DNA of 64,000 nt from Escherichia coli. Lineage in GTDB: Bacteria > Pseudomonadota > Gammaproteobacteria > Enterobacterales > Enterobacteriaceae. The position numbers and the translations under genes are program-made. The notes beneath the pieces are model-generated. The model was not told where the DNA came from. It worked only from the letters and a program-made list of their open reading frames with translations, and made no database searches. Of this stretch, positions 22,476 through 36,141 are shown in pieces. The stretch's first letter is position 1. Every line of letters starts with the position of its first letter. Location: NCBI RefSeq assembly GCF_001677475.2, contig NZ_CP015229.1; one strand, 5' to 3'.

Positions 22476-22551
22476 GGCCCCTTAGCTCAGTGGTTAGAGC
22501 AGGCGACTCATAATCGCTTGGTCGCTGGTTCAAGTCCAGCAGGGGCCACCA
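22476..22551 (+). tRNA. ileX: tRNA-Ile (anticodon CAU, lysidine-modified)
   Basis: 76-nt sequence ggccccttagctcagtggttagagcaggcgactCATaatcgc...gggccacca folds as a canonical cloverleaf with CAT anticodon and encoded CCA; its 3' 46 nt are repeated at 36093-36141. Confidence 0.92.
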
Positions 22552-22554
22552 GAT
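22506..22554 (+). repeat. attL core (3' part of ileX plus 3 nt)
   Basis: Exact 49-bp identity with 36093-36141, read directly from the sequence. Confidence 0.85.
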
Positions 22555-22593
22555 TTCAATGAATTACAGATGTATCCAAACTATCTTGCTTTA

Positions 22594-22627
22594 CCAGGAT
22601 ACTTATAGGATACCTCTGAGAAGTATT
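22594..22627 (+). promoter_or_regulatory. Arm-type repeat near attL (AGGATAC motifs; candidate integrase/accessory-factor binding site)
   Basis: ccaggatacttataggatacctctgagaagtatt closely matches 35964-35997 near attR (29 of 34 positions). Confidence 0.45.
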
Positions 22628-22765
22628 AACAAGTAAGAATTGGCTCATGCCTACAGAACAGTTGGGTCGTAGCAGCCGTTCACCTGCGAACAAGAAAGTG
22701 CTACGGGTCTGAACTTTTGCCCCCAACTCTCCAAGAGACCGGCAAAAACCCTGACGGAGGTATCA

Positions 22766-22909
22766 ATGGATACTTTAAGAAAGGGCTCAGACCTGCTGTC
22801 TGCACGTGTGATTGCCGTTACAGGTTTAATCGCAGCACTTGGCAATTTAGGTCTATGCCCAATAGCCGTAGTGCTAGTATGTATAGCTTTAGTTATCATG
22901 CTGAAGTAA
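22766..22909 (+). CDS. 47-aa small hydrophobic membrane peptide (MDTLRKGSDLLSARVIAVTGLIAALGNLGLCPIAVVLVCIALVIMLK)
   Basis: Strong SD (ggagg) 6 nt upstream of ATG; followed by hairpin gcccagctttcgctgggc; a single predicted TM helix. Too short to be in the ORF track. Confidence 0.5.
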   Translation: MDTLRKGSDLLSARVIAVTGLIAALGNLGLCPIAVVLVCIALVIMLK

Positions 22910-23356
22910 TGACAGCGTAACAAGCTCGGCCCAGCTTTCGCTGGGCCTCCCATTTCTACCTCCCAAAATCTATTAGAAACAATAAGCCACTAAAGAAAGA
23001 GCTTTTGCTGGCTACAATACTCACATACAAACAATTTTTATTTTTCGCGGGCGTAAAAAAACGATGGGGCTGGCAGTCCGGAAGACGTCAGGGTACAGAG
23101 ATTTGTACCCGCCTCTCCCTGTGCATGAGCACAATAAGTAACCGAAGGCGGAATTCCGCCCTCGGTACTCACATATGAGAAACGATATTTCTTCCACCGA
23201 TACCCTTTATTTGGGTATCGCGAGTAAGCCCCAAAATCTGGGTGTTACTCTTACTACCCAAACTACGGGTAGTTTCCGTAGTTTCATGGTCGAGTTGCAG
23301 ATCTGCAACTCACCCACCAGCCAACGCAATTTTGCGTTATCGGGAATATCAGCAAG

Positions 23357-23652: not shown

Positions 23653-23973
23653 TTACTTGTCTTTATTCGGCTGCAACTTATCCGGCACATTTCCGGTAGT
23701 TTCCATCAGGTAATCAGCCAGTATCTGTGGGAGGTTGTCGGCAACTCTGGCACTGGCATTACAGGCTTTAACCACTTCCCTTTTAAGCCCATCCAGCATA
23801 GCGGGGGTAATGTGTGGGAAGCTCCTTTGCATAGTAAGCGGGAGGCTGTCCATGATTGATGAAATCTGACTCGCCAGTTTTGAAAGCGCGTACATGCAAA
23901 ACTCTGTATCAATCACGTCACCGCGATCGCGCTCGTTTTTAAGTTCCTGCGCCTCCGCCTGTGCTGTCAGTAA
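23653..23973 (-). pseudogene. Small terminase subunit (lambda Nu1-like), C-terminal fragment separated from its N-terminus by the IS insertion
   Basis: Translation ...AQAEAQELKNERDRGDVIDTEFCMYALSKLASQISSIMDSLPLTMQRSFP... parallels lambda Nu1 C-terminal region (...AQADAQELKNARD...ETAFCTFVLSRIAGEIASILDGLPLSVQRRFP...) from memory. Confidence 0.7.
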
Positions 23974-24085
23974 TCTGATCCTGACTCGTAAGTATGAGAC
24001 GACAATAACTCAGTCCGCCTGGCGCCGATTATTCTGGCCGGTTTTGTAACCTGAGTGTCATTTACATGATCCAACAGGAAATGGC

Positions 24086-25465
24086 GTGACGCTCAATACT
24101 TCTCAGGTCAGTTACTATATGACTCAGCGTAAGAAAGGTATAACTCAGCATATCTCGGCCATGAAGGCTGGTATCTCAGTCCGTTCTGGTCGTCGGATCG
24201 AAAAAGGAGAGTGGGCAAAAAACAGTGTTCGGCACTGGCGCACACGCAAAGATCCTCTGGAAGCTGTGTGGGACAGCATGCTTGTTCCTCTGTTGAAAGA
24301 GAGGCCGGCTCTGACACCAACAACTCTACTGGAGATGCTACAGGATAAATATCCCGGCCAGTACCCCAACAGCCTTCGAAGAACAATGCAACGGCGGGTT
24401 CGCGAATGGAAACTACAGTATGGTACAGAGCAGGAGGTCATGTTCCGCCAGCAACATCAGCCCGGCCTGCGAGGCCTGTCGGACTTTACTGAACTGAAAG
24501 GTGTAGTTGTCACCATCGCCGGTAAGTTGTTGGCGCATAAGTTGTATCACTTCCGTCTGGAATGGAGCCACTGGAGCTGGATGCGGGTTGTTCTGGGTGG
24601 TGAGAGCTTCTCTGCTCTGGCTGAAGGCCTGCAGGAAGCCCTCGGACAACTGGGCGGAGTGCCGGTAGAACATAAAACGGACAGCCTGAGGGCAGCATGG
24701 AAACAACAGGGCGAAGATGGACGCCGCGAGCTGACTGAGCGTTATGCTACTCTCTGTCAGCACTACGGAATGCAGGGCGTACACAATAATGCCGGTCGGG
24801 GCCACGAAAATGGCTCGGTTGAAAGTGCCCACGGACATCTGAAAAGGCGTATCTGTCAGGCGCTGATACTGCGGGGCAGTAACGACTTCAGCACCATAGA
24901 AGAATATCAGGCCTTCATCACTCAGCAGGTTATGCGGCACAACCGTAACAATCAGGATCTGGTCAAGGAAGAACGTCTTCATCTGAAACCGCTGCCGCTT
25001 CGTCGCAGTGCTGACTATGATGAGCTGACTGTGAGGGTTAGTCGCAGCAGTACCATCAATGTGAAGCACGTCGTCTACAGCGTACCTTCCCGGCTTGTAG
25101 GTCAACTGTTACGGGTCAGGTTATGGGACGATCGTCTGAGCTGTTACGTTGGCAGCAGCGAGGTCATGAGCTGCCCTCGCGTCAGACCAGAAAAAGGGAA
25201 GACGCGGGCCCGTCGTATCGACTTCCGACATGTGATCGACAGTCTGGCAAAAAAGCCCGGTGCGTTCTGCCATGCAACGCTGAGAAATGACATCCTGCCG
25301 GACGATGAATGGCGGAGGCTGTGGCGTCGCTTATGTAATCATCTGGAGCCCGATATGGCAGGAAGGCTGATGGTACATGCCGGGAAACGTGGATCTGCAC
25401 CGGCTGATGCGCTTCCTGGGTATAAAAGAAAAGGCGTTGCCGGTAGTCAATGTGATACAGCATAA
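24086..25465 (+). CDS. istA: IS21-family transposase IstA
   Basis: 459-aa ORF (GTG start) with N-terminal HTH and DDE-type catalytic region; sits immediately upstream of an IstB-like gene. Confidence 0.8.
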   Translation: MTLNTSQVSYYMTQRKKGITQHISAMKAGISVRSGRRIEKGEWAKNSVRHWRTRKDPLEAVWDSMLVPLLKERPALTPTTLLEMLQDKYPGQYPNSLRRTMQRRVREWKLQYGTEQEVMFRQQHQPGLRGLSDFTELKGVVVTIAGKLLAHKLYHFRLEWSHWSWMRVVLGGESFSALAEGLQEALGQLGGVPVEHKTDSLRAAWKQQGEDGRRELTERYATLCQHYGMQGVHNNAGRGHENGSVESAHGHLKRRICQALILRGSNDFSTIEEYQAFITQQVMRHNRNNQDLVKEERLHLKPLPLRRSADYDELTVRVSRSSTINVKHVVYSVPSRLVGQLLRVRLWDDRLSCYVGSSEVMSCPRVRPEKGKTRARRIDFRHVIDSLAKKPGAFCHATLRNDILPDDEWRRLWRRLCNHLEPDMAGRLMVHAGKRGSAPADALPGYKRKGVAGSQCDTA

Positions 25466-25510
25466 CCTGAGCAGTTATGAGCAACTACTGCGTGGCAAGG
25501 GAGGTTCGCA

Positions 25511-26266
25511 GTGAGCAATATCCATCACCTTGAACATAGCCTGCGTAAACTACGCCTGACACGAGTTGGAGCTGAATGGCACGCTCTGGAAAAACGAGCG
25601 CTGGCAGAAGGCTGGACACCATCGCGCTATCTTCTGACGCTATGCAATGAAGAACTCCTGTGGCGCGAGAGTGAAAAACTGCGTCGTTATAAAAAGGAGG
25701 CCCGGTTGCCAGTTGCCAAAACGCTGAGCGAATACGACTTCAGTCAGGTGCCGGAACTGAATGGAGCTCAGTTCCGGCAACTCTGTGAAACGACAGACTG
25801 GGTTGATGCAGGAGAAAACGTTCTGCTGTTCGGAGCCAGCGGGTTGGGGAAAAGCCATCTGGCGGCAGCGATCGTGGATGGCGTAGTAGGTCAGGGCTAC
25901 CGGGCCCGGTTCTACAGCGCAGGAGAGCTGTTGCAGGAACTACGTAAAGCCAGAGCTCAGTTGAAACTGAATGAGCTGCTACTGAAACTGGATCGCTACC
26001 GGGTGATAGTGGTGGATGATCTTGGCTATGTCAAACGCGATAGTGCCGAAACGGGTGTGCTGTTCGAGTTAATAGCGCATCGCTATGAACGTGGGAGCCT
26101 GGTGATAACCAGTAACCATCCGTTCAGCATGTGGGGCAGCATCTTCGTGGATGAGACTATGGCGGTGGCTGCGGCAGACAGGCTGATCCATCACGGATAT
26201 ATGTTCGAACTGAAAGGGGAAAGCTACAGGAAAAAGACAGCGAAGGCAGTAACAAGCGCGACTTGA
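25511..26266 (+). CDS. istB: IS21-family helper ATPase IstB
   Basis: 251-aa ORF with Walker A (GASGLGKSHLA) and Walker B (VIVVDDLGY) motifs; RBS gggagg upstream of GTG start. Confidence 0.85.
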   Translation: MSNIHHLEHSLRKLRLTRVGAEWHALEKRALAEGWTPSRYLLTLCNEELLWRESEKLRRYKKEARLPVAKTLSEYDFSQVPELNGAQFRQLCETTDWVDAGENVLLFGASGLGKSHLAAAIVDGVVGQGYRARFYSAGELLQELRKARAQLKLNELLLKLDRYRVIVVDDLGYVKRDSAETGVLFELIAHRYERGSLVITSNHPFSMWGSIFVDETMAVAAADRLIHHGYMFELKGESYRKKTAKAVTSAT

Positions 26267-26325
26267 TGTCGCCCTGAAGGGTGCGGCCAGTATAGTTGGC
26301 GCGAGTCGGCAAAACTAGTTGACGT

Positions 26326-26526
26326 CTAATATCGTAAGAGTTCATCATCATCAATCTCGCCTTTGTCGTTTGTAAGCTGGCTAATTGCATTGTTAACCCT
26401 ATTGTCTATCACGCTGGCAACATCATAAAACGCCTCACGGCCTTTACGTTCAACGGGAGTCACTCCCCACTTGTCGAATGCTGTAGCACTTACCCGGCAG
26501 CTTTGCGCCATGGTTTTTTTGTTCAT
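26326..26526 (-). pseudogene. Small terminase subunit (lambda Nu1-like), N-terminal fragment truncated at the IS boundary
   Basis: MNKKTMAQSCRVSATAFDKWGVTPVERKGREAFYDVASVIDN... parallels lambda Nu1 N-terminus (MEVNKKQLADIFGASIRTIQNWQEQGMPV...); ORF ends exactly at the IS junction. Confidence 0.7.
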
Positions 26527-26639
26527 CAGGTGCGATTTCATCAATATCCCAACTTGGTCAAGGTTTCAGGTTGGTGTGTTGGTGTTATCTTTCCCTTTTT
26601 ATTCATGGAGATAGAGCAAACAACAAAACCACCACCACC

Positions 26640-26747: not shown

Positions 26748-27161
26748 TCAGATGGTTTTCAGTATGCGATCGATGTCGCCATCATCGCCCGGGTTTCTGC
26801 CAGCGTATGCCATACCAGCTGATACGGCTTTCGGGCTGTGCATGTCCATAAAGTTTTCAAAGGCTGCGGTAAGCTCTGGTGCAACCTTCTGGCGTTCCTG
26901 CTCTATGGTCATGCTAAGGATGCTTTTAGCCGTACCAACATCGATACAAGGCACGTTTGCCATTGCACGTAACAGCGGCTGATAGTCGCCAGATTCATCA
27001 AGCGCCATAATCGCATCAGAGCGCGGCTTGTCCTTCTCTTCCAGGCTGTTAAGTTGATATACGGCCTCGTAGGTTGATAAACCTCTGTCAGCCATTGCCC
27101 GCGCTTCGGCCTTAAATTTACTCGCCAGCGGTAGCGTCATGATGCTTTCATTCGTTGCCAT
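26748..27161 (-). CDS. Hypothetical protein (137 aa) between decoration-like gene and cos
   Basis: ORF with no motif I recognise; co-oriented with capsid genes. Confidence 0.55.
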   Translation of the reverse strand: MATNESIMTLPLASKFKAEARAMADRGLSTYEAVYQLNSLEEKDKPRSDAIMALDESGDYQPLLRAMANVPCIDVGTAKSILSMTIEQERQKVAPELTAAFENFMDMHSPKAVSAGMAYAGRNPGDDGDIDRILKTI

Positions 27162-27173
27162 CGTTCCCTCTGC

Positions 27174-27509
27174 TTATCGGGCCAGTGGCTGAACGGATAC
27201 GCCAGAACCCGCAAAGGCGGCGCATTTTTTCGCATCGGTGTCGACGCTCTCAGGCCAGTTAACGGCGGCGATATTAAATATCCCCGTCTTATAGCACTGT
27301 GCTGATTTCTGCGTCGACGTGTCAACGGGGTACGAGGTCAGATAAACAGCCTTGCCAGATTCCTGACCATCCCACGGCTTAAACTCGCCATTTTCCGCCA
27401 GCATCAGCGGGGTAAATTCCTGAATAACTCCAGCATCAGCGGCAAAATGTACCAGCGTCGTGGATACCTGCTGACTGCCTGCAAATAACTCAATGTATGG
27501 AGTGTTCAT
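27174..27509 (-). CDS. Head decoration protein (lambda gpD-like)
   Basis: 111-aa ORF, size and position next to an E-like capsid gene match lambda D (110 aa); assignment by context and size, weak sequence recall. Confidence 0.6.
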   Translation of the reverse strand: MNTPYIELFAGSQQVSTTLVHFAADAGVIQEFTPLMLAENGEFKPWDGQESGKAVYLTSYPVDTSTQKSAQCYKTGIFNIAAVNWPESVDTDAKKCAAFAGSGVSVQPLAR

Positions 27510-27520
27510 AGAATCCCCCG

Positions 27521-28576
27521 TTAAGCAATTTTGACGGTAACAAATTTGCGAATATCTGCCGGTACCGGCTGCGGTGCGCTGTGCGTCTGCACGTACTCAA
27601 TCGCCGGATCGCCATCCTCAATCCAGTTTTTCGGGTAGTACATGTTTTGCGTTGCGCCAGTTCTTACCGCTTCCGGATCCATAATCGCACCATAGGCCAC
27701 CAGCCCTTTATTGTTAGTGTTGCCCAGGACAAGCAAATCAGGCTCAAGGAAATATTTTTCGGTGCCATCGCTGTCGGTGTATTTGCCGGAATAGACGATA
27801 AGGGCCAGATCACCCAGATAGCCTTTAAAGCTCACCACTTCGCCCAGGTTTTTACAGGCCAGCTCTGCGGCGGATTCTGAACCACGGGAAAGATCGTACA
27901 GTTCACGGAATTTTTTAAAGCTGCGTAACGTGCGCCATACCTCAGCGCCCATAATCATGACGTTGGCGGGGCAACCAGCCTGATCGGTGTATAGTTCGAT
28001 GTCATAGATTGGATCGTGTGTTTCCTTATCTGCCTCAGACCACTTTTTGCCCGATCCCTGCGTAATGATGTTTTTAGTCGGGATTTTCCAGTCGATTTCG
28101 TATCTATTTATTCCTTCGCCCTCAATGATGTTTTTTCCGGTCGTGACCGCATTCACCGCCAGCCATTCTATGCGAGCTTTAATAGCGTTTACCTGGCGGC
28201 GCATGTTGCCAGTAATCAGGCGCATACGGCGATAAGTTGGATCGTTAAGCTGTGCCGGATCTTCTCCAGCCATGCGCATGATGGTTTTTGATGGATCGAT
28301 TTCGTGTTTTGGTTTCATATAGCCAGGGCGGATAGTGCTTGTTTCGTACCCTTTATCGCGCTGAACCTGACTCCCCACCATAGGCGAACAAAAAGCCGAC
28401 ATGGTGACTTCTTCAATATCCAGGGTATCTAACATGATGTCCTGCGTGTTGAAGGTTGCCACGTTCGGGAAAAACAGCGACGTAAACAGCGGACTGAATT
28501 TAAATTCCGAAATATCCCCACGATTCAGGTACGCGAAAAGCTGGTTAGTGTTAAGTGCCGTTGCTTTGCCTGTCAT
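27521..28576 (-). CDS. Major capsid protein (lambda gpE-like)
   Basis: 351-aa ORF aligning along its length with lambda E from memory: FKFSPLFTSLFF / FKFDPLFLRLFF, PGYMKPKHEIDP / PGYVKPKHEVNP, YSGKY...LVLGNTNN...YPKNW / YSGQY...MVLGNTQA...YPKNW. Confidence 0.8.
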   Translation of the reverse strand: MTGKATALNTNQLFAYLNRGDISEFKFSPLFTSLFFPNVATFNTQDIMLDTLDIEEVTMSAFCSPMVGSQVQRDKGYETSTIRPGYMKPKHEIDPSKTIMRMAGEDPAQLNDPTYRRMRLITGNMRRQVNAIKARIEWLAVNAVTTGKNIIEGEGINRYEIDWKIPTKNIITQGSGKKWSEADKETHDPIYDIELYTDQAGCPANVMIMGAEVWRTLRSFKKFRELYDLSRGSESAAELACKNLGEVVSFKGYLGDLALIVYSGKYTDSDGTEKYFLEPDLLVLGNTNNKGLVAYGAIMDPEAVRTGATQNMYYPKNWIEDGDPAIEYVQTHSAPQPVPADIRKFVTVKIA

Positions 28577-28815
28577 TATTCACCCCCATGAGTCTGATTC
28601 ATGCCCAGCGCCGCGCGTAAATAGGCGCGTACCTGCCAGCCTGTTGACGGCTCAACCATCGCCAGCGGCTCAAGTCCTGCCGCAATGCCTGCTTTTACGT
28701 TCTGCTGGTGGCGTTCCTTGAGCGCCTCCACGATGTCTGGGCTTATGTAAACTGTCACCCCGCCTTTTTTCTCTTCTGCCATAGTCGGAAATTCCTCTTT
28801 GACGTTAAAAATCAC
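28576..28815 (-). CDS. Hypothetical small protein translationally coupled to the capsid gene
   Basis: 79-aa ORF (possibly starting at internal MAEEKK); stop shares one base with the capsid ATG. Confidence 0.5.
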   Translation of the reverse strand: MIFNVKEEFPTMAEEKKGGVTVYISPDIVEALKERHQQNVKAGIAAGLEPLAMVEPSTGWQVRAYLRAALGMNQTHGGE

Positions 28816-28846
28816 AACTGGATGTTCATCCAGTTGTGATTATAAT
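28811..28846. promoter_or_regulatory. Perfect 14-bp inverted repeat plus TATAAT box upstream of the capsid operon
   Basis: atcacaactggatg-tt-catccagttgtgat immediately followed by tataat; read directly. Confidence 0.45.
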
Positions 28847-28951
28847 CATGATTTCATTTTACGCAATAATGTTGAGTTGTGTTGCAAATTGTGAAATGAT
28901 TTCCGGCAACAGTAGTCACCATACTGTTAGATAAAAGCCTCATATGCAAAA

Positions 28952-29028
28952 GCCCGATAAGACCCTCTGACCTTATCGGGCTTTTTTTGGGGCATAAAAA
29001 AGCCGGACTTCTCCGGCTTCTGTTACTC
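28952..29028. terminator. Pair of intrinsic terminator hairpins between the SSB gene and the capsid operon
   Basis: gcccgataag...cttatcgggc followed by T-run; and gccggacttctccggc flanked by A-run / T-run (functional on minus strand). Confidence 0.55.
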
Positions 29029-29033
29029 GTTGC

Positions 29034-29456
29034 TTAAAACGGTATGTTATCCCCGTACGGATCATCGTTACCCGCCTGTTGTTTTGCCCTGTTCAGTGCG
29101 TCAGTAGCCTGCCCTTGCTGGCCTTTTTTGCCGCCCGGTCGCGCCGTTCTCGCACTGATTACGCTGTCTGCGATAACCTGCCAGCCCTGCCGCGTTTCGC
29201 CGTTCTGGCCTGTCCACTGGCTTACCTGCATGTTACCCGCCACGCTCACCAGTTCGCCTTTGTGGTGTTTTGCCAGTGCGTCGGCCTGTCTGCCAAACGC
29301 CAGGACGGATAACCACATCGTCGCCGTTCCGTCATCTGCCTGGCTGCACGGAAGGGGGACCGCCATACTAGCCATCGTCATTTGTGTACCCTTGCTGGTG
29401 GTCTTTAACTGCGGGTCAGCCACCAGCCGCCCGTAAGCCGCTATCTGTGCTGTCAT
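29034..29456 (-). CDS. Single-stranded DNA-binding protein (island-encoded SSB)
   Basis: 140-aa ORF; Gly/Gln-rich linker and acidic C-terminal tip ...DDPYGDNIPF resembling the SSB C-terminal DDDIPF motif. Confidence 0.75.
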   Translation of the reverse strand: MTAQIAAYGRLVADPQLKTTSKGTQMTMASMAVPLPCSQADDGTATMWLSVLAFGRQADALAKHHKGELVSVAGNMQVSQWTGQNGETRQGWQVIADSVISARTARPGGKKGQQGQATDALNRAKQQAGNDDPYGDNIPF

Positions 29457-29698
29457 GCTGTCTGCTCTCCGGTTTTAACGTTGATGGTTGTCACCTGTTC
29501 CGCTTCGGCAATCTCCCGTTCTGTCAGCGTGGCAAAGTTTGCAGCTGCCGTTGTCATGAATGCGCTAATCAGTTCGGGATGTGCTTTCGCATATCCTTCC
29601 CCGGCGTTGCGGTCGATGATTTTTATCGACACCCTTAACCAGTGTTCCGTCAAATCAAGGGCGTGCGATTGTGATTTTTTTGTGTGCTTCGCTGTCAT
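29453..29698 (-). CDS. Hypothetical protein (81 aa), coupled to ssb by ATGA overlap
   Basis: ORF directly downstream of the iteron array; no recognised domain. Confidence 0.5.
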   Translation of the reverse strand: MTAKHTKKSQSHALDLTEHWLRVSIKIIDRNAGEGYAKAHPELISAFMTTAAANFATLTEREIAEAEQVTTINVKTGEQTA

Positions 29699-29742
29699 AG
29701 GCTTTATCTCACAGCAGTAAATTAAAATTTTTGCGTTTTAAC

Positions 29743-29971
29743 CCTTCACCTGTTCACCTTTTGATATTTTCCATTTAAATTCATACTGTTAAGGGGTGAA
29801 CAGTTTCACAAAAACTATTCACCAACTGTTCACCACTGTTCACCCTTGAAGCTCAATAAACAACCAAAAAGGTGAACAGTGAATAGTTTGGTGAATAGTT
29901 CATAAATAACTGTTCACCCTATAATATACTGATATAAAAGATATTTATGACAGGGTGAACAGTGGTGAACA
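29743..29971. repeat. Iteron array (P4 ori/crr-type TGTTCACC octamers)
   Basis: Perfect TGTTCACC at 29751, 29827, 29837, 29911 and its complement GGTGAACA at 29795, 29871, 29954, 29964, plus degenerate copies (tattcacc, ggtgaata), within ~230 bp immediately 3' of the primase gene. Confidence 0.8.
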
Positions 29972-29985
29972 GTTATTCCATAAGT

Positions 29986-31803
29986 TTAATTTTTGCTATC
30001 GTCATTAGTGACTGATACACATGATGGCATCCAGTCTTCTGATTCCTCCGTCAGTGTCACGTTTGAACGTAAACCGTGCTTCGTTTTCCGTTTTATATAC
30101 TCCCTGCCATATTCCGCCATTGCCCCAGGCATATCTTTACCGAAGCGCGTCAGTGTTACAGGTTTACCAAACCCATGAGCCCTCATATAAGCCAGATAGG
30201 CATGATAGAGATACCTGCGCGGGCTGAATGGCACAATTTCAGCATTACCCACTAACAGGCCATCACACATTACCGACGCCATGAGATAGCCGCAGAAGTC
30301 CACCAGCGAATCCCCCTCTCGCTTTATCGCCAGTGCTTCTTCAGATTTCTGCTGCTCATATAACAGGCGTCTGGCTTCGTCCTGGTCAGCAAACCTTGTA
30401 AGCAGATGGCGAATCACTACCGCCAGCTCACCTTCTATTTTTTCCGCCAGCATCGGATCGCGTTCGTTCTCCGGTACAACTTCCGAAAAATTGAATATCA
30501 CCCGACGACGTGAGATCCCCCCGCTGCGGTCACTGAATGACATGGCGTTATTGTTAACCGCCAGCACTACTGCCGGAATACGCGTTGAGTAGGGGGCTTT
30601 GTGTTTCGGGTCAATTGCCACCTTGTCACCGCCTGTAATGGCCTTAATTCCTGCCCCATCACCAGCGTAGCGGGTCATATCCGGCATGATAATCAGCGAA
30701 AAGCCAACCACTAACGCGCGTTCCCTTGCATCTTCCAGCGCCTTCATGCTTGCCGATACTGTGTTGGCCTTACCCGCCAGCATGGTGCAAATCTCCGCCA
30801 TCACGCTTTTACCACTTCCCCCTGGACCTGTTACCTCAATGAATAACTGCCAGTCGTACCGGTTCGCCAGCACCATGAATAATGCAGCCAGTACGCGATC
30901 CGCCTTGCGGTCATTCTCAGCCACCGAACGGCGTAACCACTTCCAGAAATTCGGCGCATGTGTTGCCAGCGTTTCCCCCTCTGCTGGTGGGCTGAAAGGT
31001 AATTCACTGGCAATTAACAACCAGTCGTTTTTGTTATGCTCCCGAAAATTACCTGTTCTGGTATCAAATACCCCGTTACTGAATCCAATCAGGTTACGGG
31101 CTGTATTCCCCATTACAGGCAAACTTAACTTCATGGTATCGACCGCCGATTTAATGGCGTTCTGCGAATAGCTGATCTCCGCATCAATGAAAATCTGCGC
31201 CATAGCACGCTGTAACTCTTTATCCTGAACCGGCTCCCATACAACGCCGTTGTAATGGTGAACAGTGTCAGAGTCAGCATGAATCGCCAGTTCACCGCCA
31301 TAATGTGCCAGGAGAACTTCGCCGCGTTGACTTGCTCCCATCTGGTTAAGCGCCAGTGATGAAGCGTTATCGTCTTTTACCCGCTCTTTTTTCTTTACAG
31401 GCAGTTCAACTACCTTTTTCTTTTCCGCCAGCTCTGCCCGTTCACGTTCCAGATATTCGCGCCAGTTCTCCCGTTTCTGGCTGTGCATTCCTTCAGGATA
31501 ATAATCAGCATCCCTGACACCTGCCGCTGCCAGTTTCTGCCCGATGGTATTAACAAGCCCCGGACGCAATAACCCCGCCTGGTAGAGACGCACACGATAG
31601 CGTCCGTCCGGTACGATTTGCAGGTTGTCCAGTTCGGCAAGTTGTTGCTCTCCAAGCCAGACAGGAGGCACGTTATCGCCAGCCAGTCGCCCGTCCTGTT
31701 CCTGCCACTGCTTCGCATGTGCCCACGCATCACTACCCGCAAAAATGATGACTTCCGTCATTTTGTCACGTGGCTGGTGTTTTAAATTTGGCGCTTTTTT
31801 CAT
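29986..31803 (-). CDS. Satellite replication protein (P4 alpha-like primase-helicase, D5-type NTPase)
   Basis: 605-aa ORF (likely start MKKAP with ATGA overlap to upstream gene); Walker A GPGGSGKS; adjacent to TGTTCACC iterons. Confidence 0.75.
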   Translation of the reverse strand: MKKAPNLKHQPRDKMTEVIIFAGSDAWAHAKQWQEQDGRLAGDNVPPVWLGEQQLAELDNLQIVPDGRYRVRLYQAGLLRPGLVNTIGQKLAAAGVRDADYYPEGMHSQKRENWREYLERERAELAEKKKVVELPVKKKERVKDDNASSLALNQMGASQRGEVLLAHYGGELAIHADSDTVHHYNGVVWEPVQDKELQRAMAQIFIDAEISYSQNAIKSAVDTMKLSLPVMGNTARNLIGFSNGVFDTRTGNFREHNKNDWLLIASELPFSPPAEGETLATHAPNFWKWLRRSVAENDRKADRVLAALFMVLANRYDWQLFIEVTGPGGSGKSVMAEICTMLAGKANTVSASMKALEDARERALVVGFSLIIMPDMTRYAGDGAGIKAITGGDKVAIDPKHKAPYSTRIPAVVLAVNNNAMSFSDRSGGISRRRVIFNFSEVVPENERDPMLAEKIEGELAVVIRHLLTRFADQDEARRLLYEQQKSEEALAIKREGDSLVDFCGYLMASVMCDGLLVGNAEIVPFSPRRYLYHAYLAYMRAHGFGKPVTLTRFGKDMPGAMAEYGREYIKRKTKHGLRSNVTLTEESEDWMPSCVSVTNDDSKN

Positions 31804-32099
31804 TTCTGCTCTCTCCACGCGGCAATCATGTTTTTCAGTTCCTGTAGTTTTTTATCAACATCCATACATGACACATGGTTATTTCTGGAAGGCGGGATTT
31901 CCCGCCGGAATCTGCAAATAAAGATCTCCACGTTCAGCGAGCTATGAAATGAATAGCCATCACGAATAAAATACACACGGTCAAACATTATCGATTTTAC
32001 TGTTACTCTGTTGCCGTTCTTATCCCGATAAATAGCGCCGGGGATAATTTTGGGATGTGCATAACCGCTGGCAGTCAAGCCAGATAAATACGTTCTCAT
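31800..32099 (-). CDS. Hypothetical protein (99 aa)
   Basis: ORF translationally coupled to the primase gene; no recognised domain. Confidence 0.5.
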   Translation of the reverse strand: MRTYLSGLTASGYAHPKIIPGAIYRDKNGNRVTVKSIMFDRVYFIRDGYSFHSSLNVEIFICRFRREIPPSRNNHVSCMDVDKKLQELKNMIAAWREQK

Positions 32100-32105
32100 G
32101 ATTAT

Positions 32106-32426
32106 TTATCCCCGATTTGAATCAGTATTCGCTTTCTTTATGGCATTTAATGCATCTGTGGCATTTTCAATGGTGCACCGTAACGAAATATCAAAATGTC
32201 CAAGCATTGCCAGTAACAAACCGATATTACCCATATCAATGCGCATGGCCTTTTCGTCATAGTCCTCATTTTCTGACGCATGCCACATCAGGCTACCAAT
32301 TGACGCAACGGCCATTGATATATTGTCAGTCGCCCCATCCGCAGCGGAATAAACCTTTTTAGCAATATCATGCTCACAGTTAAAATGCGGATTAATCAGG
32401 TACTGGTAATTTGACATATCAGGCAT
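32106..32426 (-). CDS. Hypothetical protein (106 aa)
   Basis: ORF upstream of the 99-aa gene; lower GC than flanking island DNA. Confidence 0.5.
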   Translation of the reverse strand: MPDMSNYQYLINPHFNCEHDIAKKVYSAADGATDNISMAVASIGSLMWHASENEDYDEKAMRIDMGNIGLLLAMLGHFDISLRCTIENATDALNAIKKANTDSNRG

Positions 32427-32622
32427 GGCACACCCCCTGACGAATACGGGCGGCGAATACCATCACGCAGCCAGCCGGGGAGTGCTGGCGTGCTTCCTGT
32501 TCGCTGGTGGCCACGATGGTAATCACACGCGGTTTTGCGGCGCTCAGGGCGATAAAACGCCAGGCGAATTTATTCAGGTTGTGCGAATCCCGCCCTTGCG
32601 GGTGTATGGTATGATTTCTCAT
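32419..32622 (-). CDS. Small protein, possibly Icd-like (host cell-division inhibitor family of P4-like elements)
   Basis: 67-aa ORF MRNHTIHPQGRDSHNLNKFAWRFIALSAAKPRVITIVATSEQEARQHSPAGCVMVFAARIRQGVCHA; the family assignment is from memory of similar annotations and is tentative. The 334-aa ORF in the track is an upstream stop-free extension that looks non-coding. Confidence 0.45.
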   Translation of the reverse strand: MRNHTIHPQGRDSHNLNKFAWRFIALSAAKPRVITIVATSEQEARQHSPAGCVMVFAARIRQGVCHA

Positions 32623-32717
32623 AGCTACCTCGATACTCTCGTTATCGTTGGTGGTTAGAAGCCCTGCGAGTGGTAACGACACTTGCGGGGCTTTGTTTTT
32701 TGTTGCACTTACTGTTA

Positions 32718-32763
32718 ATGTACGTACGTAATATTGATGATAATAGGAGTTACGTACGTACAT
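32718..32763. promoter_or_regulatory. Twin palindromic operator (two copies of TACGTACGTA, 30 bp apart) in a divergent promoter region
   Basis: atgtacgtacgtaat at 32718-32732 and gttacgtacgtacat at 32749-32763; second copy overlaps the start codon of the RHH-like gene. Confidence 0.55.
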
Positions 32764-32953
32764 GTCAACATTAAAGCGGGATAAATCACCACGCGGCGAG
32801 GGATGGTCGCCGACATTCCAGATACGAATTAGCAAAGAACTACGCCAGCAAGTAAACGAGGCAGCAACCGCCGATGGCCTAACCCTCGGCAATTGGTTTA
32901 AAGAATTAGCTCGTGCCGAACTAAAGCGACGCGGCATTGAACCTAAAGGCTGA
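32762..32953 (+). CDS. Small DNA-binding protein, probable ribbon-helix-helix fold
   Basis: 63-aa ORF; TFQIRISKELRQQVNEAA... resembles a beta-strand plus helix RHH pattern; two short basic ORFs follow at 32957-33082 and 33138-33317. Confidence 0.5.
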   Translation: MSTLKRDKSPRGEGWSPTFQIRISKELRQQVNEAATADGLTLGNWFKELARAELKRRGIEPKG

Positions 32954-33429
32954 TGTATGACTGAAAAGCAGACCGATAACAAACTTTCTCTACCAGAGAA
33001 TAAACCAGCAGGCTTCTTACCAAGAAAAATCCTTGATGAGATCAAACGCCGCCAGCGGCGCAAGGCCAAAGAGCAGGAGTAACCATCACCAGCGCCGTGG
33101 TGCGGTGAACTGTGGCGCACAGGGTTACAGGTATCTACGATGACTGACAAATCATTAAAGAAATTATCCTCATCCAAGAAAAAACAACGCAAAAATGCGG
33201 TAAACGAACATGAACCGGAGAGATTCGCACCATGTGCGTTTATCCTTGAGAAGTACCTTAAAGAGTATTCTAGGAAAATACGCTCATTGCAGGCATGGCA
33301 GCGAATCGAGCCAGACTGATAGCATTGCCCACCAGCCAACAACCTGGTATTCTGGATATGCTCAAGTTTAGTGTTATGCCACTGGCGGCCCTCTGCGGTC
33401 GCCTTTGTTTTATGTGCCATCACTCCCCC

Positions 33430-33648
33430 TTACACCGTCTGCGTTCTGCGAGTGGATGCAAGATAAGCATCGAGATCAGTGCGCATATACAGCACTTTGC
33501 GCCCCAGCTTATGGAAAGGGATTTTTACCTTGCCAGTACAGGCCCAGTTCGCCAGCGTTTGATTGTTAACGCCAAGGTAGGCAGCAGCTTCAGCACGTGT
33601 AAGGCGGTCAGTTGATAAATCAGATTTCTTTAAATTCATATCTATCAC
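33430..33648 (-). CDS. alpA: AlpA/excisionase-family HTH regulator
   Basis: 72-aa ORF with LTRAEAAAYLGVNNQTLANWACTGKVKIPFHKLGRKVLY (MerR-like HTH_17 pattern). Confidence 0.75.
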   Translation of the reverse strand: MIDMNLKKSDLSTDRLTRAEAAAYLGVNNQTLANWACTGKVKIPFHKLGRKVLYMRTDLDAYLASTRRTQTV

Positions 33649-33786: not shown

Positions 33787-34507
33787 GGGGGTGAACAAGT
33801 TCAAACGAAGAATATTTATCAGGTCTTGGTGGTTGTGCTCCTGATTCTTTAATCCATTTATCCAGAGTGTTTTTACTTACTTTCCCATGATAGTAAACAG
33901 AAAGCTCGTTCAATAAACCTGTTTTACTGGCTTTAGGGTACTTTTCCCATGTTAGTTTAATTACGTGCATAACTTCATTGTAATAATGATTTCTTGGTTT
34001 GCGCGCTTTTTCTTTCTGTGATAAGGATAAAGCATCTTTTATTTTTTTATCTTTTTCATGGTTCGATATAATTTCTTCAAAAAAGTCATTAAGCAATAAC
34101 TCAACACCAACCCTAGTAAGTTTGTCTGCGTGATTACGCATTCCGACATGGTACAATGCAACTGCTGAATTTAAAGTATCGACAACCTGACAAGATAGTT
34201 TACTATCAAATATTAAAAAACCACATGAATCCATTCTTATAGCTAATTCAATAGGATATTGCTCGATTTCTCTTAATTCTAAACCATAACACAAAAGAAA
34301 TTCTCTTGTTGGATACTTTGATTTATAAAAATAATCTCTTATATCATCAATCAAGCGTTTTATAGCCTCTATGGTGGAGTTTTTCGGGGATAAAGATACA
34401 GGAACGTTTAAAACTGAAGAGTCTCGCCCACCAGTAATTAAATCATTCATAACCGAATAAATAATATATTGTTTGACCGATATATTGTTATCACCCATAT
34501 ATGTCAT
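33782..34507 (-). CDS. AT-rich orphan protein (241 aa) in the integrase-proximal cargo position
   Basis: Long ORF with visibly lower GC than the rest of the island; overlaps the int stop; no motif I can recognise. Confidence 0.6.
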   Translation of the reverse strand: MTYMGDNNISVKQYIIYSVMNDLITGGRDSSVLNVPVSLSPKNSTIEAIKRLIDDIRDYFYKSKYPTREFLLCYGLELREIEQYPIELAIRMDSCGFLIFDSKLSCQVVDTLNSAVALYHVGMRNHADKLTRVGVELLLNDFFEEIISNHEKDKKIKDALSLSQKEKARKPRNHYYNEVMHVIKLTWEKYPKASKTGLLNELSVYYHGKVSKNTLDKWIKESGAQPPRPDKYSSFELVHPQ

Positions 34508-35912
34508 TCTTTTCTTGTACTATAGCAAATAGTAAACGACGTTTTTCATCATCACTCATGCCCTCCAGTGCGGAAAGTAATTGCGCATCGATAGATTTTT
34601 TACTCTCCACCAGCCCGGCATGTTCCAGAATTGCCCGTTCTATCCGTGATGCTGGCTCCAGCAGTTCATCAGCACCGAAATGTAAATACCCCTGCGTTAC
34701 GTCGGCACTTCGCATAGTGCGGTGATTCATCAGGCGCTTGAGGATGTAATTACCCACGCCCACCAGCTCAGCAACCGTTCCGAACGTCCGGCGTGCGTCG
34801 TGCCACTTAAACGGGACAGGGAAGAGCATTTCATCGTTCGCCTCAGGAATGGTAGCCGCGCTTATCCGGTCTATGATGTGCCGTGTCTCCTGAATCACTC
34901 CCTTCACGCCAGGAAACACCAGCACATCATCAGCAGCTTTGTTTTTTAGCCTGCGAAGAAACATTTTCCGCAACGTATCAGTGATCGGCAGTTCAAGCGG
35001 ATCCCCGTTTTTCGTGGTGTCTATCCAGAAAAAGCGACCGCCCATATTCACGCGATCCCACGTAAGGCCAAAAACTTCTGATTTCCTCAGTCCGGTAAAC
35101 AGTGCCATTTCCACGGCATCACATACCGTAACAGCTATATCATCCCTTTCCTGTTCGCCCTGGTCGCGCACAGCAGCTACAGCAGCAAACCAGCGGGGAA
35201 AATCATGCAGGCGGATACGTTCCGTTTTTCTTACCGTTCCGTGCCACTGGCGCTTGGTGCTCAGTACCAGAGTCGGCGGATCCGGTAAAAGAGTATTACC
35301 CGCATCATCACGGTAATGATCATGCGCAAACCGACACACAGCACGTAGCGCACGCGCCCATAAATCGGCCTGTGCCTTGCTTCCTGTACCAACCCCAGCC
35401 CGTAACGTGGTTTTATCAGCACCGAACCATACAGCCCCATCAGTGATGGCCTTATGCCGTTGTTCCACCCGTTCGCGGGAAATACTGGCGAGGGTATGGG
35501 CCATCCAGTCACCGGAATAATTCTGTAATATGCTGCGGTACTGTTTTTCTGTGGAGGGTTTCAGGCGGTGGCCACGATTTTTTACGTAGGCGTCAATCGC
35601 CTCACTCAGCGTTATCATGGCCTTGTTGTTAGTGCGCTTTGCTATGTTCGGATTTATCCCCGTTGTGGCGACTTCGCCAAGGAGTTCCATAGCTTTAGCC
35701 CTGGCATTATCCACGCTCAGATCAGGAAAACGCCCCAGCGTTGCACGAATAAATTTTCCGTTACGCTTACGGGAAATGCAGAAACTTTTCACACCAGACG
35801 AACCTACACGGACACGCAGCCCGTTAACCTCCGTATCACCATATTCGACCTGTCCATGTTCCGGCGTTGGCAGTTCTGCAATTTTTACTTTAGAGAATCT
35901 GAATAATTTCAC
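34491..35912 (-). CDS. int: Tyrosine site-specific integrase
   Basis: 473-aa ORF from a GTG start; catalytic signature region (LRKSE..., WHDARRTFGT, ...QGYLHF) with an N-terminal arm-binding-like domain. Confidence 0.85.
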   Translation of the reverse strand: MKLFRFSKVKIAELPTPEHGQVEYGDTEVNGLRVRVGSSGVKSFCISRKRNGKFIRATLGRFPDLSVDNARAKAMELLGEVATTGINPNIAKRTNNKAMITLSEAIDAYVKNRGHRLKPSTEKQYRSILQNYSGDWMAHTLASISRERVEQRHKAITDGAVWFGADKTTLRAGVGTGSKAQADLWARALRAVCRFAHDHYRDDAGNTLLPDPPTLVLSTKRQWHGTVRKTERIRLHDFPRWFAAVAAVRDQGEQERDDIAVTVCDAVEMALFTGLRKSEVFGLTWDRVNMGGRFFWIDTTKNGDPLELPITDTLRKMFLRRLKNKAADDVLVFPGVKGVIQETRHIIDRISAATIPEANDEMLFPVPFKWHDARRTFGTVAELVGVGNYILKRLMNHRTMRSADVTQGYLHFGADELLEPASRIERAILEHAGLVESKKSIDAQLLSALEGMSDDEKRRLLFAIVQEKNDIYG

Positions 35913-35935: not shown

Positions 35936-35997
35936 GGTATCCTGGAAAATCGCTTGTTCTGCTCCAGGATACCTATAGGATACCGTAAAGAAGTATT
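35936..35997 (+). promoter_or_regulatory. Arm-type repeats near attR, directly upstream of the integrase start
   Basis: ggtatcctgg / ccaggatacc inverted pair plus tandem GGATACC copies and the block shared with 22594-22627. Confidence 0.45.
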
Positions 35998-36092: not shown

Positions 36093-36141
36093 ACTCATAA
36101 TCGCTTGGTCGCTGGTTCAAGTCCAGCAGGGGCCACCAGAT
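36093..36141 (+). repeat. attR core (displaced partial copy of tRNA-Ile 3' end)
   Basis: 49-bp exact copy of 22506-22554; upstream sequence is not tRNA-like, so this is not a functional tRNA. Confidence 0.85.

Follow-up and report, generated by a model that had tools for sequence, protein, structure and literature searches.

The ssb gene of a predicted PICI in Escherichia coli and the C-terminal tip of its satellite SSB family

By comparing a short, island-borne ssb gene with its relatives, its neighbouring genes and the host protein, we found that it probably encodes a functional SSB of a PICI replication module, which would provide an extra supply of SSB for induced replication and would work through the usual host partners (we place the probability of this reading at roughly 0.75). 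The gene lies in the window, by which we mean the whole 64,000-nucleotide stretch of E. coli chromosome that was analysed (contig NZ_CP015229.1). Its C-terminal tail is unusual beside that of the host SSB, and from the family alignments it appears to be the normal, still canonical-looking tail of a satellite SSB family. The presence of an SSB in a PICI replication module is already known from the literature and from RefSeq annotation.

The ssb gene and its product

The coding sequence and the three parts of its protein are located as follows:

29034..29456, minus strand: ssb coding sequence, an ATG-started ORF of 140 amino acids plus stop
29148..29456, minus strand: OB-fold ssDNA-binding domain, residues 1–103 (profiles, AlphaFold2, Foldseek and host alignment)
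29073..29147, minus strand: short disordered linker, residues 104–128 (alignment and AlphaFold2)
29037..29072, minus strand: C-terminal tip GNDDPYGDNIPF (family motif DDP[YFW]xDxIPF)

The gene is preceded by a GGAG-type ribosome-binding site and its product ends in AGNDDPYGDNIPF, the last residues being NDDPYGDNIPF. A 1-kb stretch around it (28800–29800) is 100% identical to strain TUM1886, in which the ssb product of the identical locus is RefSeq WP_000126655.1. Profile searches matched the protein to Pfam SSB PF00436 over residues 5–99 (E=4.4e-16; 59.3 bits against a cut-off of 26) and to TIGR00621 (61.1 bits against a cut-off of 53.95), and 25 PDB SSB sequences matched it at E<=1e-3. AlphaFold2, given a family alignment of 28 sequences, modelled residues 1–103 as an OB fold (pLDDT ~80–91) and residues 104–140 as a disordered tail (pLDDT <50), and the top 50 Foldseek matches of the model in the PDB were all bacterial SSB OB domains (probability 1.00). 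Profiles and predicted fold thus agree on a bacterial-type SSB, as the preliminary description of this DNA had proposed for these 140 codons; that description gave no strand, which is the minus strand. We regarded a 130-aa plus-strand ORF at 29044–29436 as a shadow of the ssb frame. For the island SSB we infer ssDNA binding, an oligomeric state and partner binding.

The chromosomal SSB of E. coli (178 aa in strain CFT073) is built from the same three parts, an OB fold, a disordered linker and an acidic, amphipathic tip, and is 25% identical to the island protein over the OB domain. Three of the four base-stacking aromatics through which EcSSB contacts ssDNA are aligned with aromatics of the island protein (W54, F60 and W88 with W48, F54 and W81), whereas W40 has no aromatic equivalent; the tetramer-interface His55 is likewise not conserved and is replaced by Leu. 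The linkers differ in both length and composition, with 55 residues rich in Gly, Gln and Pro in the host protein versus 25–30 residues in the island protein, where the linker is basic (six K/R) and not Gly/Pro/Gln-rich. Across the SSB family, the alignment shows this linker to be modular and prone to indels.

The island and its replication module

The window has the chromosomal order rpsU-dnaG-rpoD-mug-tRNA ... nfeF-nfeR-aer, and two 49-nt repeats bound a 13.6-kb island that includes a 2.3-kb IS. The main features are:

22506..22554, plus strand: attL core, 49-nt direct repeat corresponding to the 3' part of the tRNA(CAT) at 22476–22551
36093..36141, plus strand: attR core, perfect 49-nt direct repeat of attL
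34491..35912, minus strand: tyrosine integrase (Arm-DNA-bind_3 and Phage_integrase)
33430..33639, minus strand: HTH_17 regulator, possibly of the AlpA/excisionase class, 69 aa
31800..32099, minus strand: DUF4222 gene; islands of this kind have it as a conserved partner upstream of the initiator
29986..31818, minus strand: primase-helicase (D5_N, DUF5906, Pox_D5; P4-family primase C-terminal domain), replication initiator
29749..29973, no strand assigned: candidate replication origin with 10 iterons GGTGAACAGT (at most one mismatch) in both orientations, from an iteron search
29453..29698, minus strand: 81-aa ORF, phrog_1231
28948..29026, minus strand: two tandem GC-rich hairpins with U runs, terminator-like, from folding
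26748..28576, minus strand: late module of capsid, decoration and scaffold-like genes, corresponding to c1499/c1500 of EcCICFT073
27521–28576, minus strand: lambda-E-like major capsid gene
27174–27509, minus strand: gpD-like decoration gene
26748–27161, minus strand: 137-aa gene, probably scaffold-like

The island genes all lie on the minus strand, and the CAT-anticodon tRNA at attL is annotated as tRNA-Ile by RefSeq. Reading from the tyrosine integrase, the order is a 241-aa protein, the HTH_17 regulator, an Icd-like gene, a 106-aa protein and the DUF4222 gene, followed by the D5_N/DUF5906/Pox_D5 primase-helicase, a 287-nt gap, the 81-aa ORF and ssb, and then by the two terminator-like hairpins, a 79-aa ORF, the lambda-E-like capsid, gpD-like decoration and 137-aa scaffold-like genes and a Nu1-like small terminase. 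The 69-aa regulator matches HTH_17 (45 bits) and not Phage_AlpA itself; Schmid et al. put the two families in one group (PMC10111431), and related islands carry PF05930. That the gene is island-encoded, as had been proposed, is borne out by the direct repeats flanking an element with integrase, HTH_17 regulator, primase and capsid genes.

The closest known system is EcCICFT073, which is the prototype of the Gram-negative PICIs (phage-inducible chromosomal islands) and whose capsid and decoration genes are c1499 and c1500 (Fillol-Salom et al. 2018, PMC6092414). We found that CFT073 1380852–1388654 is syntenic with the window island (Icd-like, DUF4222, primase, small ORF, SSB, capsid, decoration). 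The EcCICFT073 SSB (C_RS06995, WP_000126698.1) ends in GGDDPYGDDIPF and occupies the same position, after the DUF4222 gene, primase, origin gap and small ORF and before the capsid E/D genes, with the same 4-nt overlap between the small ORF and the ssb start, a DDPYGDxIPF tip and a short linker. It differs in being 136 aa long, in having another linker module (NRRKTTGTQGNQPPAG) and in carrying Asp at the fourth position from the C-terminus (GDDIPF), closer to the canonical ending, and in CFT073 a PerC gene follows ssb. Because of the att repeats, integrase, HTH_17 regulator, primase, capsid E/D genes and synteny, we assign the island, from sequence, to the EcCICFT073-type PICIs integrated at a tRNA, with the SSB as a predicted part of its replication module.

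The neighbourhood of ssb suggests how this module is laid out. The iterons lie around AT-rich stretches in the gap that separates the primase stop from the 81-aa ORF, and the window holds 16 matches to the iteron against 2.9 expected, 10 of them within the 225-nt stretch; one more exact copy lies inside the primase gene (31257–31266). In PICIs the ori is directly 3' of the initiator gene (Fillol-Salom et al. 2018, PMC6092414), and primase, SSB and DUF5906 colocalize with a mapped origin in a study that lists SSB only as a replication-category gene (PMC10111431). By its position, 29749–29973 would be the PICI origin. On the other side of the 81-aa ORF, its stop overlaps the start of ssb by 4 nt (ATGA), which suggests translational coupling of the two genes. 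The post-ssb hairpins begin 8 nt past the stop codon (MFE -43.8 kcal/mol, z = -5.8 by direct folding), and a consensus terminator scan made no call at them.

The same 4-nt arrangement recurs in other islands: wherever an ORF precedes ssb, its end overlaps the ssb start by 4 nt (six loci), and the coupled protein itself varies widely between islands (81, 83–104, 180, 247 or 257 aa, or absent).

Several further observations concern the rest of the island. Its head and packaging genes comprise only the capsid E, decoration, scaffold-like and Nu1-like genes, with no tail or lysis genes, and an Rfam scan of the island returned the tRNA only and no P4-like immunity RNA. The 137-aa protein is similar to head-maturation proteases over their C-terminal end only (phrog_53, profile positions 494–568 of 583), and since the lambda scaffold Nu3 is nested within gpC in a like arrangement, it is probably scaffold-like. 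The mechanical ORF list has a 334-aa frame at 32419–33423 on the minus strand, of which RefSeq annotates the last 67 codons only (Icd-like); matches to a PHROG 'transcriptional repressor' are confined to residues 252–333, and the longer frame probably starts too early, at an upstream GTG. An imperfect 34-nt direct repeat (22594–22627 and 35964–35997; 85% identity) lies just inside the island ends, some 40 and 95 nt away from the att cores, and could represent integrase or excisionase binding sites.

The 2.3-kb IS is an IS21-family element at 23993–26331 (IstB Pfam, 209 bits) inside the island's Nu1-like small-terminase gene, which it splits into an N-terminal part at 26326–26544 and a C-terminal part at 23653–23916. 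Its genes are:

24086–25465, plus strand: istA
25511–26266, plus strand: istB

The otherwise 99.5% identical TUM1886 island is without the IS and has an intact 180-aa small-terminase gene, and a 7-bp alignment overlap at the IS suggests a target-site duplication. The window copy is thus probably packaging-defective and, because of the IS in the small-terminase gene, may no longer be transferable. The ~480 bp next to attL (22555–23035) did not align to the TUM1886 island, and over the 600 bp that follow identity falls to 88.5%; the edge of the island is here a variable accessory region.

An insertion in a packaging gene could be taken to mean that the ssb gene beside it is also a decaying remnant without current function. 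This is hardly credible here, as the ORF is intact with its ribosome-binding site and coupled start, the surrounding 1 kb of DNA is 100% identical to that of the IS-free island, and both the tip and the OB domain (mean column entropy 0.39 bits in the family) are strongly conserved and found in several genera. It is because of this conservation that we exclude a decaying gene.

The C-terminal tip in the satellite family and in host SSB

The preliminary description had set the tail DDPYGDNIPF apart from the host ending DDDIPF, and rightly so: the host protein ends in PPMDFDDDIPF, and the hexapeptide of the window SSB is GDNIPF. The two tips align exactly in register (island D-D-P-Y-G-D-N-I-P-F, host P-M-D-F-D-D-D-I-P-F) and share the aromatic residue at -7, the Asp at -5 and the final Ile-Pro-Phe, with Phe as -1. 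Relative to the host, the island tip has Gly for Asp at -6, Asn for Asp at -4, and an acidic pair at -10/-9. With three acidic residues in the last ten, it is an amphipathic acidic tip of the type that ends in [IL]-P-F.

We surveyed the tails of 120 close relatives, which follow DDP[YFW]xDxIPF, and calculated column statistics for 96 full-length members. Asp(-5) and Phe(-1), which are D136 and F140 of the window SSB, are invariant in all 96 members, P139 (-2) is kept in 93 and I138 (-3) in 91, and the IPF ending is present in 108 of 115 close relatives. The -4 column, in which the window SSB has Asn, is the most variable of the tip and the second most variable of the whole protein (N44, D21, G19, E11 and S1 among the 96). 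Alternation of N, G, E and S at this position is seen on two linker backgrounds (QAGNDDPYGDx and TGQHDDPYGDx), and near-identical proteins carry D, N, G or E there.

The comparison was widened to 67 distant relatives with an x-P-F type ending, found by searching 1.84 billion cluster representatives. Short SSBs (125–150 aa) whose tips are of the [FY][DN]Dx[ILV]PF type are frequent among these; position -7 is F or Y in 45, position -6 is D or N in 57 and position -5 is D in 60, while -4 is free (E20, D15, P11, A8, G4 and others). The exact ending DDDIPF occurs in none of 115 close relatives and in 5 of the 67 distant ones, and is the consensus of chromosomal SSBs and not a strict requirement of the SSB family. 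What truly distinguishes the satellite family is not the Asn but Gly(-6), found in 97/115 close relatives versus 1/67 distant relatives, together with the acidic pair shifted to -10/-9. The tip residues are invariant across hundreds of clusters from several genera, and their retention in a disordered tail beside an indel-rich linker suggests that selection acts on the tail.

Published work on the host tail indicates what the two substitutions could mean for partner binding. The last two SSB residues (P176/F177) sit in a hydrophobic pocket and Asp residues contact its basic rim, and in a model of the complex with chi, D172 faces K132, D173 faces R135 and D174 faces R128 (PMC3045619); in the interaction of the SSB tail with DnaG-C, hydrophobic contacts and hydrogen bonds dominate (PMC3632105). 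In the island tip the residues that bind the pocket are retained, as is the equivalent of D173, and D172 and D174 have no equivalents. As Gly(-6) and Asn(-4) replace these two residues, lower affinity for some partners is possible, and with a single Asp adjoining the IPF a weaker or reweighted affinity is conceivable. Our literature search found no experimental study of any PICI SSB, and 'ssb' is absent from the main text of four PICI papers.

These differences bear on the proposal of the preliminary description that the altered tip biases the recruitment of replication factors toward the island. On this view, the family-specific tip PYGDxIPF would shift partner selectivity toward replication factors or the island primase-helicase, over nucleases and repair proteins. 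In its favour, Gly(-6) is typical of the close family and nearly missing from distant relatives; the loss of D172 and D174, with their modelled contacts to K132 and R128 of chi, could reweight affinities (PMC3045619), and partners differ in their reliance on electrostatics (PMC3632105). We nonetheless consider it unlikely. Against it speak the in-register alignment, in which the pocket-binding IPF and D(-5) are kept as in host SSBs, and the variability of -4 in near-identical proteins; moreover, the prototype PICI has DDIPF, and three unrelated initiators share this one SSB family. As SSB has no preference for particular ssDNA sequences, SSB alone cannot mark one replicon.

Initiators, relatives and the proposed role

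Sequence similar to the 1-kb ssb region was present in 1695 of the 5426 complete genomes of E. coli, in up to six places per genome, and 27 aligned relatives are 79–97% identical to the window SSB. Ten SSB variants were compared by island context (tip; initiator; island or other genes):

YGDNIPF; D5_N/DUF5906; window island
YGDDIPF; D5_N; CFT073
YGDNIPF; D5_N/DUF5906; cfPICI-like island with HK97-type capsid, protease and portal genes
WGDDIPF; D5_N/DUF5906; capsid E/D genes, Nu1
FGDDLPF; D5_N/DUF5906; ProQ, PerC
YEDEIPF; DUF927; ProQ, PerC
FSDDIPF; DUF927; ProQ, PerC, antiterminator Q
YGDGIPF; DUF927; E. coli, ProQ
YGDGIPF; DUF927; Salmonella, ProQ, PerC
WGDDIPF; AAA_25 helicase-like; ProQ, PerC

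One SSB family is thus found directly downstream of three unrelated initiators (D5_N/DUF5906, DUF927 and AAA_25), in classic PICIs as well as in the cfPICI-like island, whose HK97-type head genes are of the kind typical of capsid-forming PICIs. In these E. coli and Salmonella satellites the position directly after the initiator and the DxIPF-type tips are constant, whereas the initiator, the coupled ORF (absent or 83–257 aa) and the downstream genes (ProQ-domain, PerC or capsid modules) vary, and -4 is D, G or E. Because the same family stands behind three unrelated initiators, these contexts are suggestive of a generic function through host partners and not of a replicon-specific handshake.

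We also considered whether the tip variant tracks the initiator type. Asn(-4) was seen only with D5_N initiators in about ten contexts; Asp(-4) occurs with all three types, which within this small sample of ~10 contexts leaves no exclusive pairing.

In islands with DUF927 or AAA_25 initiators, ProQ-domain and PerC genes often follow ssb. In a related island, from Salmonella enterica subsp. salamae, a reverse-transcriptase gene (RVT_1, 327 aa; L016:6788-7771) lies downstream of an SSB-ProQ-PerC block and may be retron- or DRT-type defence cargo.

A search of 50,697 phage records returned no close homologue of the island SSB (best 31% identity, mostly staphylococcal and streptococcal phages), and we take this to mean that the family is, as judged by sequence, probably satellite-specific among known coliphage-related elements. 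The staphylococcal and streptococcal phage SSBs among the tblastn matches are, like the island SSB, SSBs of mobile elements. The idea that ssb was borrowed from a helper coliphage was rejected, with no coliphage homologue among the matches listed from these records.

The lack of a close coliphage homologue among those matches has also been weighed for a role in conflict, in which the island SSB would compete with the host SSB for tip-binding proteins, form mixed tetramers, interfere with replication or recombination of the helper phage, or evade or trigger defence systems able to sense foreign SSBs, and in which the -4 residue would be under diversifying selection, tuning the choice of host, helper-phage or defence proteins that engage this SSB. 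If this were true, different PICIs would carry functionally distinct SSB tips. The hypervariability of -4 between invariant neighbours, with the same substitutions on two linker backgrounds, is compatible with such tuning, and two reports can be counted for it: lambda Red-beta is reported to interact with E. coli SSB (PMC6393309), and an SSB-like phage protein is reported to control a DRT10 defence system (2026 bioRxiv preprint). However, -4 varies just as freely in distant relatives, as an unconstrained side chain would, and the conserved position of ssb beside initiator and origin points to replication. We regard both the conflict role and the diversifying selection on -4 as very unlikely.

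The reading that we prefer remains that of a functional SSB serving the PICI replication module, and the sequence of events may be pictured as follows. A helper phage would induce the island and the island operon would be transcribed; the primase-helicase would open the iteron origin directly upstream of ssb, and the island SSB, coupled to the small upstream ORF, would coat the exposed single strands. Its tail, an Asp-x-Ile-Pro-Phe preceded by an aromatic residue and with two further Asp, would dock in the hydrophobic-pocket/basic-rim sites of host Pol III chi, DnaG and other proteins, as the host tail does, and so recruit replisome and repair proteins of the host. The island SSB would in this way add capacity for the burst of satellite replication, and factors would not be redirected to the island; expression on induction and the capacity role are both inferred. 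Plasmid and phage SSBs likewise add SSB capacity, the SSBs of the F plasmid and P1 being mobile-element proteins that supplement the host protein, and complementation data exist for some plasmid SSBs.

The above analyses suggest that the locus is a well-behaved example of the E. coli PICI replication module, with initiator, iteron origin, coupled ORF and SSB. Its importance beyond annotation is slight, and the contribution of SSB to satellite replication is a modest question. For those who work on satellites and SSB partners, it may be useful that the family has a conserved tip of its own, DDP[YFW]xDxIPF, with a free residue at -4, and that this one SSB family is common to PICIs with three unrelated initiators, including one with cfPICI-type head genes.
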